A DNA stretch of 64,000 nucleotides from Shigella phage sb1. A model generated the notes under the pieces. It made no database searches. It worked only from the letters and a program-made list of their open reading frames with translations, and was not told the DNA's origin. The stretch's first letter is position 1. Each line of letters opens with the position of its first letter. The stretch is from the sequence record PQ666539, one strand, 5' to 3'. Shown here one piece after another: positions 42,798 through 44,363 of this stretch. The position numbers and the translations under genes are program-made.

Positions 42798-44363
42798 ATG
42801 ACTATCAAAACTAAAGCTGAACTTTTGAACAAATGGAAGCCATTACTGGAAGGTGAAGGTTTACCGGAAATTGCTAATAGCAAACAAGCGATTATCGCTA
42901 AAATCTTTGAAAACCAGGAAAAAGATTTCCAGACAGCTCCAGAGTACAAAGACGAAAAAATCGCTCAGGCGTTCGGTTCTTTCTTAACAGAAGCTGAAAT
43001 CGGTGGTGACCACGGTTACAACGCTACTAACATTGCTGCTGGTCAGACTTCTGGCGCAGTAACTCAGATTGGCCCAGCTGTTATGGGTATGGTACGTCGT
43101 GCTATTCCTAACCTGATTGCTTTCGATATTTGTGGTGTTCATCCGATGAACAGCCCGACCGGTCAGGTATTCGCACTGCGTGCAGTATATGGTAAAGACC
43201 CAATCGCTGCTGATGCTAAAGAAGCATTCCACCCAATGTATGGTCCAGATGCAATGTTCTCTGGTCAGGGTGCTGCTAAGAAATTCCCTGCTTTAACTGC
43301 TGGCGCACATACTAATGTAGGTGACATCTATACTTATTTCTTCCAGGAAACTGGTACTGTATATCTGCAAGCTTCCTCTGTAGTAACAATTAGTTCAAGT
43401 GCTGATGATGCAGCTAAATTAGATGCTGAAATTAAGAAACAAATGGAAGCTTGCGCATTGGTAGAAATCGCTGAAGTTATGGCTACTTCTATCGCTGAAC
43501 TTCAGGAAGGTTTCAATGGTTCTACCGATAATCCATGGAATGAAATGGGCTTCCGTATCGATAAACAAGTTATCGAAGCTAAATCTCGTCAGCTGAAAGC
43601 TGCTTACTCTATCGAATAAGCACAAGACCTCCGCGCTGTTCACGGTATGGATGCTGATGCTGAACTGTCTGGTATTCTGGCTACCGAAATCATGTTGGAA
43701 ATCAACAGTGAAGTTGTTGATTGGATTAACTACTCAGCTCAGGTTGGTAAATCTGGTATGACCCTGACTCCGGGTTCTAAAGCTGGTGTGTTTGACTTCC
43801 AGGACCCGATTGATATCCGTGGTGCTCGTTGGGCCGGTGAGAGCTTTAAAGCCCTTCTGTTCCAGATTGATAAAGAAGCAGCCGAAATCGCTCGTCAGAC
43901 CGGTCGTGGTGCTGTTAACTTCATTATCGCTTCCCGTAACTTAGTTAACGTTCTGGCTTCAGTTGATACCGGCATTTCTTATGCTGCACAGGGTCTGGCT
44001 ACCGGCTTTAACACTGATACTACCAAGTCAGTATTTGCTGGTGTTCTGGGTAGTAAATACCGCGTATATATCGACCAGTATGCTAAACAGGATTATTTCA
44101 CTGTAGGTTATAAAGGTCCGAACGAAATGGATGCTGGTATTTACTACGCTCCATATGTAGCTCTGACTCCGCTGCGTGGTTCCGATCCGAAGAACTTCCA
44201 ACCGGTAATGGGATTCAAAACTCGTTACGGTATCGGTATCAACCCATTTGCAGAATCCGCTGCTCAGGCTCCGGATTCTCGCATCCAGAGCGGTATGCCT
44301 TCTATTCTGAATAGCCTTGGTAAAAACGCTTACTTCCGACGTGTATATGTTAAAGGTATCTAA
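42798..44363 (+). CDS. 23: gp23 major capsid protein, interrupted by in-frame TAA at 43617-43619
   Basis: track ORFs 42798..43619 and 43647..44363 share frame; 522 codons as T4 gp23. Confidence 0.95.

Follow-up and report, generated by a model that had tools for sequence, protein, structure and literature searches.

The in-frame TAA codon that interrupts the major capsid protein gene (gene 23) in the record of Shigella phage sb1 (PQ666539) is very probably an error of the sequence record rather than a feature of the phage itself. The DNA analysed, referred to below as the window, is a stretch of 64,000 nucleotides from this record. It was found to be a Tequatrovirus (T4-like) segment, covering the tRNA/lysozyme region and the baseplate, neck, terminase, tail and head genes up to alt, and is about 96–97% identical to Shigella phages sb2 and pSs-1 and Escherichia phage ECp13.

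Gene 23 and its in-frame stop codon

Gene 23 is placed between the scaffold gene 22 and the vertex gene 24, the gp22-gp23-gp24 synteny being kept. The codons at the interruption read GCT GCT TAC TCT ATC GAA TAA GCA CAA GAC CTC CGC, giving the translation ...KAAYSIE*AQDLRAVHGMDADAELSGILATEIM... (in short AAYSIE*AQDLR). A Pfam profile search against PF07068 (Gp23, 376 model positions) aligned the N-terminal ORF with model positions 1–157 (E = 4.6e-32) and the C-terminal ORF with positions 168–375 of 376 (E = 1.9e-68). When joined, the product is collinear with T4 gp23 over 521 positions (E = 0; PDB 6uzc, 7vs5, 5vf3 and others). The downstream piece is a mechanical ORF and represents no gene of its own. 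Codons, frame, Pfam match and T4 alignment thus confirm the TAA at codon 274 reported in an earlier note on this DNA, as well as its observation that the two ORFs lie in one frame of 522 codons in total. The leucine which that note had given for T4 is indeed present at gp23 position 274 in the alignment with PDB 6uzc.

Ten related phage genomes were aligned at codon 274: KNP5, UGKSEcP2, Killian, sb2, sb3, sb4, ECp13, pSs-1, phage 132 and HP3. The codon is TTA in 10/10 of them, so that one substitution, T>A at 43618, accounts for the difference in gene 23; the gp23 frame, interrupted in the window, is intact in 10/10. Over the 101-nt stretch around the stop, 136 of 715 phage records matched at 100 of the 101 positions and none of the 715 at all 101. 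The exact TAA-bearing 41-mer was not found in IMG/VR, the GTDB genome contigs or the JGI metagenome contigs; its TTA version, taken along as a positive control, was found in IMG/VR. No protein product identical to the 273-aa N-terminal fragment, and none identical to the gp24 of the window, was present in the databases searched.

The stop is not the only private change of gp23 in the window. Private non-conservative replacements by G:C>T:A changes were found at seven residues without variation between T4 and the relatives (Q115H, G219C, G227V, R304S, G373V, V382L and A493D), together with G419S, a private non-conservative G>A change, also at an invariant residue. The actual phage almost certainly carries Leu274 and an intact gp23.

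Two database records are mentioned here for their labelling. The gene 23 contained in MG010123.1, a record of 32 kb named ‘Staphylococcus phage SAJK-IND’, is of T4 type and shares 95.6% identity with that of the window; the record is evidently mislabelled or contaminated. The taxonomy line of NC_041919.1 (Escherichia phage HP3) gives Rosemountvirus, yet over 46 kb the genome aligns collinearly with Tequatrovirus genomes at about 95% identity.

Premature stops and other lesions in the window

To locate premature stops, the gene annotation of the closest relative was transferred to the window, which yielded 26 premature stops (19 TAA, 3 TAG and 4 TGA) in 23 of the approximately 77 genes of the 64 kb (Table 1). 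Among the genes hit are the essential genes 3, 5, 6, 9, 10, 16, 17 (twice), 18, 22 (twice), 23, 27 (twice), 29, 48 and 51. A single G:C>T:A change accounts for 23 of the 26, namely GAA>TAA (13), GGA>TGA (4), TCA>TAA (3), TAC>TAA (2) and GAG>TAG (1). The three stops outside this class are TCA>TAG in gp3, TAT>TAG in a hypothetical gene and TTA>TAA in gp23. In addition, gene 12 is frameshifted and gene 15 has lost its start codon. From T4 genetics, each of the essential genes listed, as well as genes 12 and 15, is indispensable, and a phage of this genotype could therefore not make a plaque.

Table 1. Features of gene 23, premature stops, other lesions and neighbouring elements in the window (positions counted from its first nucleotide).
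Feature	Position	Strand	Details
Gene 23 (major capsid protein)	42798..44363	+	521 codons and terminator, broken at codon 274; T4 gp23 alignment, PF07068
In-frame TAA, gene 23	43617..43619	+	Leu274 TTA>TAA, T>A at 43618; Leu/TTA in T4 and aligned relatives
N-terminal ORF fragment of gene 23	42798..43619	+	273 aa and premature TAA
C-terminal ORF fragment of gene 23	43647..44363	+	238 aa, starts at internal Met284
Premature TAA, gene 5	17212..17214	+	codon 486, GAA>TAA
Premature TGA, gene 17 (large terminase)	34975..34977	+	codon 366, GGA>TGA
Second stop in gene 17, TAA	35461-35463		codon 528
Premature TAA, gene 18 (tail sheath)	36125..36127	+	codon 128, GAA>TAA; also in sb2 (PQ666540)
Premature TAA, gene 22 (scaffold)	42042..42044	+	codon 25, TCA>TAA
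Second stop in gene 22	42312-42314		codon 115, GAA>TAA
Premature TGA, gene 27	54634..54636	+	codon 194
Second stop in gene 27, TAA	55075-55077		codon 341
Premature TAG, alt	61449..61451	-	codon 178, GAG>TAG
Premature TAG, hypothetical gene	9066..9068	-	TAT>TAG (T>G change)
Remaining premature stops (span 6039..59588)	6039-41, 6353-55, 7753-55, 12247-49, 13504-06, 18418-20, 25107-09, 26189-91, 33858-60, 51075-77, 52141-43, 53609-11, 55897-99, 57684-86, 59586-88		
Frameshift, gene 12 (short tail fibre, 27783-29332)	28275-28276		1-nt deletion (C missing compared with sb2), from about codon 165 on
Lost start, gene 15 (tail completion/sheath stabiliser)	32575-32577		ATG>ATT, G>T change
Lesions shared with sb2 and/or sb4	36125-36127; 40954/40962/40981; 45682-45737; 55036/55047/55058		
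Further shared lesions	20666, 24493, 25204, 32686, 39097, 55370, 55778		
tRNA cluster	9561-10388	-	Arg, Asn, Tyr, Met, Thr, Ser, Pro, Gly, Leu, Gln
Tandem alt-like ADP-ribosyltransferase genes	59925-61982, 61986-64000	-	two genes, as in relatives
ORF between genes 18 and 19	~37724-38380		about 205-216 aa in the clade; phrog_5104 (unknown function) match, no Pfam family

Some further features of the window were recorded. Of the tandem alt-like pair, the first copy holds the TAG at codon 178 and the second extends past the window end. In the clade an ORF lies between genes 18 and 19, a position at which, to our knowledge, T4 has no gene; an intact copy is present in a relative (L007:19764-20381), and the copy of the window has a 1-nt deletion after 37741. 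In the tRNA cluster region, tRNA-Tyr was called at 84 nt in the window, compared with 87 nt for that of sb2; close to the gene but outside it, 4 nt are deleted after 9809, and a single nucleotide is deleted after 9503.

Substitution spectrum and selection

Private substitutions were counted in an alignment of eight genomes, the window (positions 18000–64000) and seven relatives; a six-genome version was also made. In the eight-genome alignment, G:C>T:A changes represent 150 of the 435 private changes of the window (34%), compared with a share of 4–7% in ECp13, pSs-1, phage 132, HP3 and sb3. About 1% of all G:C sites of the window carry such a private change.

The neutral expectation was obtained by mutating each G:C site of 38 compared genes in silico, which gave 8.4% synonymous, 79.4% nonsynonymous and 12.2% stop changes. 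The private G:C>T:A changes of the window comprise 10 synonymous, 109 nonsynonymous and 16 stop changes, where 11.4, 107.1 and 16.5 are expected without selection (p = 0.9). These changes never met selection. The transitions and other transversions of the window, in the same genes, are strongly skewed to synonymous, and every class in HP3 and phage 132 shows the same skew, with no stops (p from 1e-9 to 1e-122). The window is thus made up of two layers, real ordinary divergence from its relatives and unselected G:C>T:A noise.

The G:C>T:A changes are evenly spread along the window and not clustered, with 25 gaps below 50 nt for 22 expected, and neighbouring changes are randomly oriented with respect to the strand (74 runs for 76 expected). 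A trinucleotide context preference was looked for among the G:C>T:A changes of the window and none was found, CCG being among the contexts with the lowest rates.

The class to which the gene 23 change belongs behaves in another way. The T>A changes of the window (21 synonymous, 8 nonsynonymous and 1 stop) look selected as a whole and show no measurable excess of errors. It follows that at most a few T>A errors are present, and the change in gp23 would be one of these.

Sibling records from the same batch

Together with three others, the phage was isolated and propagated from the water of one lake in Kolkata, the four being environmental isolates on wild-type Shigella flexneri (PMC11993411); having been isolated and propagated, they are viable. 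Library preparation started from 50 ng of DNA and included PCR; the libraries were run on a NovaSeq 6000, and the genomes were assembled de novo with SKESA and annotated with Prokka (PMC11993411). The same paper lists 285 predicted proteins and a G+C content of 35.16% for ADG1 (PQ666539), 291 and 35.35% for TMC4 (sb4, PQ666542), 254 and 35.49% for AKR2 (sb2, PQ666540), and 255 and 35.52% for CRD3 (sb3, PQ666541), and leaves truncated genes unmentioned. Over the aligned stretch, the window likewise has the lowest G+C content of the batch. Some 30 surplus proteins and the lowest G+C content, as seen in ADG1, are the expected product of G:C>T:A noise.

In the 38 compared genes, premature stops number 18 in the window, 28 in sb4, two in sb2, none in sb3 and none in four genomes from other laboratories (ECp13, pSs-1, phage 132 and HP3). 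These four controls were added once sb2 proved to carry stops; with two nonsense codons in its gp18 (codons 128 and 608), sb2 was rejected as a clean reference. The annotation of sb4 splits genes 6, 7, 10, 12, 13, 14, 15, 16, 27, 28 and 48, uvsW, rnlB, alt and the DNA ligase gene. The defect hence tracks the laboratory batch and not the phylogeny: sb4 and sb2 are affected, whereas the equally related ECp13, pSs-1, phage 132 and HP3 are clean. Within the batch, sb3 is clean as well.

Like the window, sb4 and sb2 belong to a clade of about 96% identity and carry unselected transversions that place nonsense codons in essential genes. The window is almost purely affected by G:C>T:A changes at random positions, whereas sb4 has a broader spectrum and clustered lesions. 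Three classes of sb4 (C>A, T>A and T>G) agree with the expectation without selection, and its stops include TTA>TAA (gp6 codon 384), TTG>TAG, TAT>TAA and AAA>TAA. Given these unselected T>A changes and a TTA>TAA stop among them, the error process of the batch does make changes of the type seen in gp23. In gp23 itself the window differs from its three siblings sb2, sb3 and sb4, in all of which the protein is intact.

Lesions shared between records

Identical radical G:C>T:A changes were observed at the same sites in the window and in sb2 and/or sb4, some of them clustered within tens of bases. They include gp18 E128*, gp20 W12L, gp9 G13V, gp68 D27Y/L29F/D36Y, gp24 L412F/G417C and gp27 D328Y/N331K/T335K. 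Chance overlap of independent random errors would produce about one shared site, and the overlap observed is far above this. The shared lesions count against purely independent random error, which does not predict identical sites.

The backgrounds around the shared lesions are not locally identical and are otherwise diverged. Descent of the lesions common to the window and sb2 from one ancestor was considered and found unsupported, since local divergence near the sites is not lowered. Cross-library contamination or a site-specific error is suspected as the source of these lesions.

Proposed origin of the errors

Between DNA preparation and the deposited assembly, the consensus of the T4-like segment would have gained several hundred base substitutions that were never exposed to selection. 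These would be mostly G:C>T:A transversions, at about 1% of the G:C sites, and to a small extent transversions of other kinds. Falling at random, such errors would create nonsense codons wherever a codon is one step away from a stop, as in GAA>TAA, GGA>TGA, TCA>TAA and TAC>TAA, and TTA>TAA in gene 23 would have arisen in the same manner. The T>A of gp23 is assigned to the artefact on the grounds of the demonstrated unreliability of the record and the spectrum of sb4, and not of a T>A excess inside the window.

Candidate physical causes are oxidative template damage (8-oxoG), contamination between libraries, and two-colour miscalls of the NovaSeq where effective coverage was low. Spurious signal in one NovaSeq colour channel would be expected to give G to T and C to A changes. 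Artefacts of the G>T / C>A class caused by 8-oxoG damage of the template in Illumina libraries were reportedly described by Costello et al. in 2013, with a context bias for CCG>CAG. The window resembles these artefacts in its dominant class, but the CCG>CAG bias is not seen in it and its changes reach the consensus, whereas 8-oxoG library artefacts normally have a low allele fraction and fall short of it.

Two other technical causes were considered. If a bottleneck in the library had fixed a few heavily damaged single templates, the lesions would be clustered and strand-coherent; the window shows neither, and the model was rejected for it, although the lesions of sb4 are clustered. Base-calling errors tied to a motif, such as one at modified cytosines, find no support at the level of trinucleotides, where no preference was found in the window.

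Alternative explanations

The substitutions might be real in the sequenced DNA, which would then come from a G>T-hypermutated and mostly non-viable population, formed, for example, by in vivo oxidative damage or by an anti-phage activity that damages guanine. G:C>T:A is the classical consequence of 8-oxoguanine, and the presence of lesions at identical sites in three records could suggest inheritance. The consensus of a propagating lysate, however, cannot be dominated by genomes with dozens of lethal lesions, and the locally non-identical backgrounds of the shared lesions indicate that these were not simply inherited. Moreover, the changes are limited to one batch and unevenly divided within it (none in sb3, few in sb2, many in the window and sb4), which is how a technical variable behaves. 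Real hypermutation is therefore considered very unlikely. A narrower version, in which encapsidated DNA really carries the G>T lesions together with the gp23 stop after massive hypermutation of the guanine-oxidation type (for example through a host activity damaging phage guanine), and in which dead genomes dominate the sequenced material, is barely credible.

A genuine ochre mutation in gene 23, with the phage kept on a suppressor host in the manner of the T4 conditional-lethal mutants, is likewise very unlikely and for practical purposes excluded. The clean one-base change from a universal TTA would fit such a mutant, as would the T>A class, which is without detectable error excess in the window. 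T4 gene 23 amber mutants such as amB17 and amH11 are said to have served in the colinearity work of Sarabhai et al. in 1964; like the window, they have a nonsense codon in gene 23, which would yield an N-terminal fragment. They are, however, single amber lesions in otherwise intact genomes that were grown on suppressor hosts, whereas the window combines an ochre codon with 25 other stops and no suppressor. A genuine mutant would be expected to carry no more than a few nonsense codons, all of the same type, and to be intact elsewhere in its genome; here, stops of three types, many of them in essential genes, make the record untrustworthy at the level of single bases. No one suppressor reads TAA, TAG and TGA, and about 15 essential genes are hit. 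All ten tRNAs of the window have ordinary anticodons according to ARAGORN, with no suppressor tRNA among them, and the likely source phages are environmental isolates with a wild-type Shigella flexneri host. Ochre suppression is inefficient, and gp23 is required at about 930–960 copies per head.

The earlier note had presented the stop as a noteworthy, possibly suppressor-dependent nonsense mutation and had mentioned sequence error only as something to exclude. That reading does not stand: in the same window 22 other genes hold another 25 premature stops, among which all three stop codons occur, a frameshift and a lost start codon are also present, the causal substitutions show no selection, and sibling records share the defect; the evidence favours sequence error as the explanation itself.

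Programmed recoding, in which TAA is translated through stop reassignment or readthrough and full-length gp23 is made, has a virtually negligible probability: the in-frame stops in many genes of the window superficially recall phages with an alternative code, but three stop types stand in frame in place of five residues (Glu, Gly, Ser, Tyr and Leu), TAA still serves as a true terminator (gp18, for instance, ends with it at codon 660 in all genomes), none of the encoded tRNAs is a suppressor, relatives of about 96% identity are without these stops, and stops are as frequent as neutral mutation predicts.

Implications

An error of the sequence record being the preferred explanation, the finding is mainly one of quality control. 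The window and at least the sibling record PQ666542 carry about 0.3–0.4% of unselected substitution errors, which break up dozens of essential genes and raise the gene counts to 285–291 from about 255. Such records would contaminate pan-genome, ‘accessory gene’ and protein-family analyses. The other single-base oddities of the window, whether stops, lost starts or radical substitutions, are to be discounted likewise. As biology, the stop in gene 23 is without importance, and the major capsid gene of this phage is almost certainly ordinary and intact.
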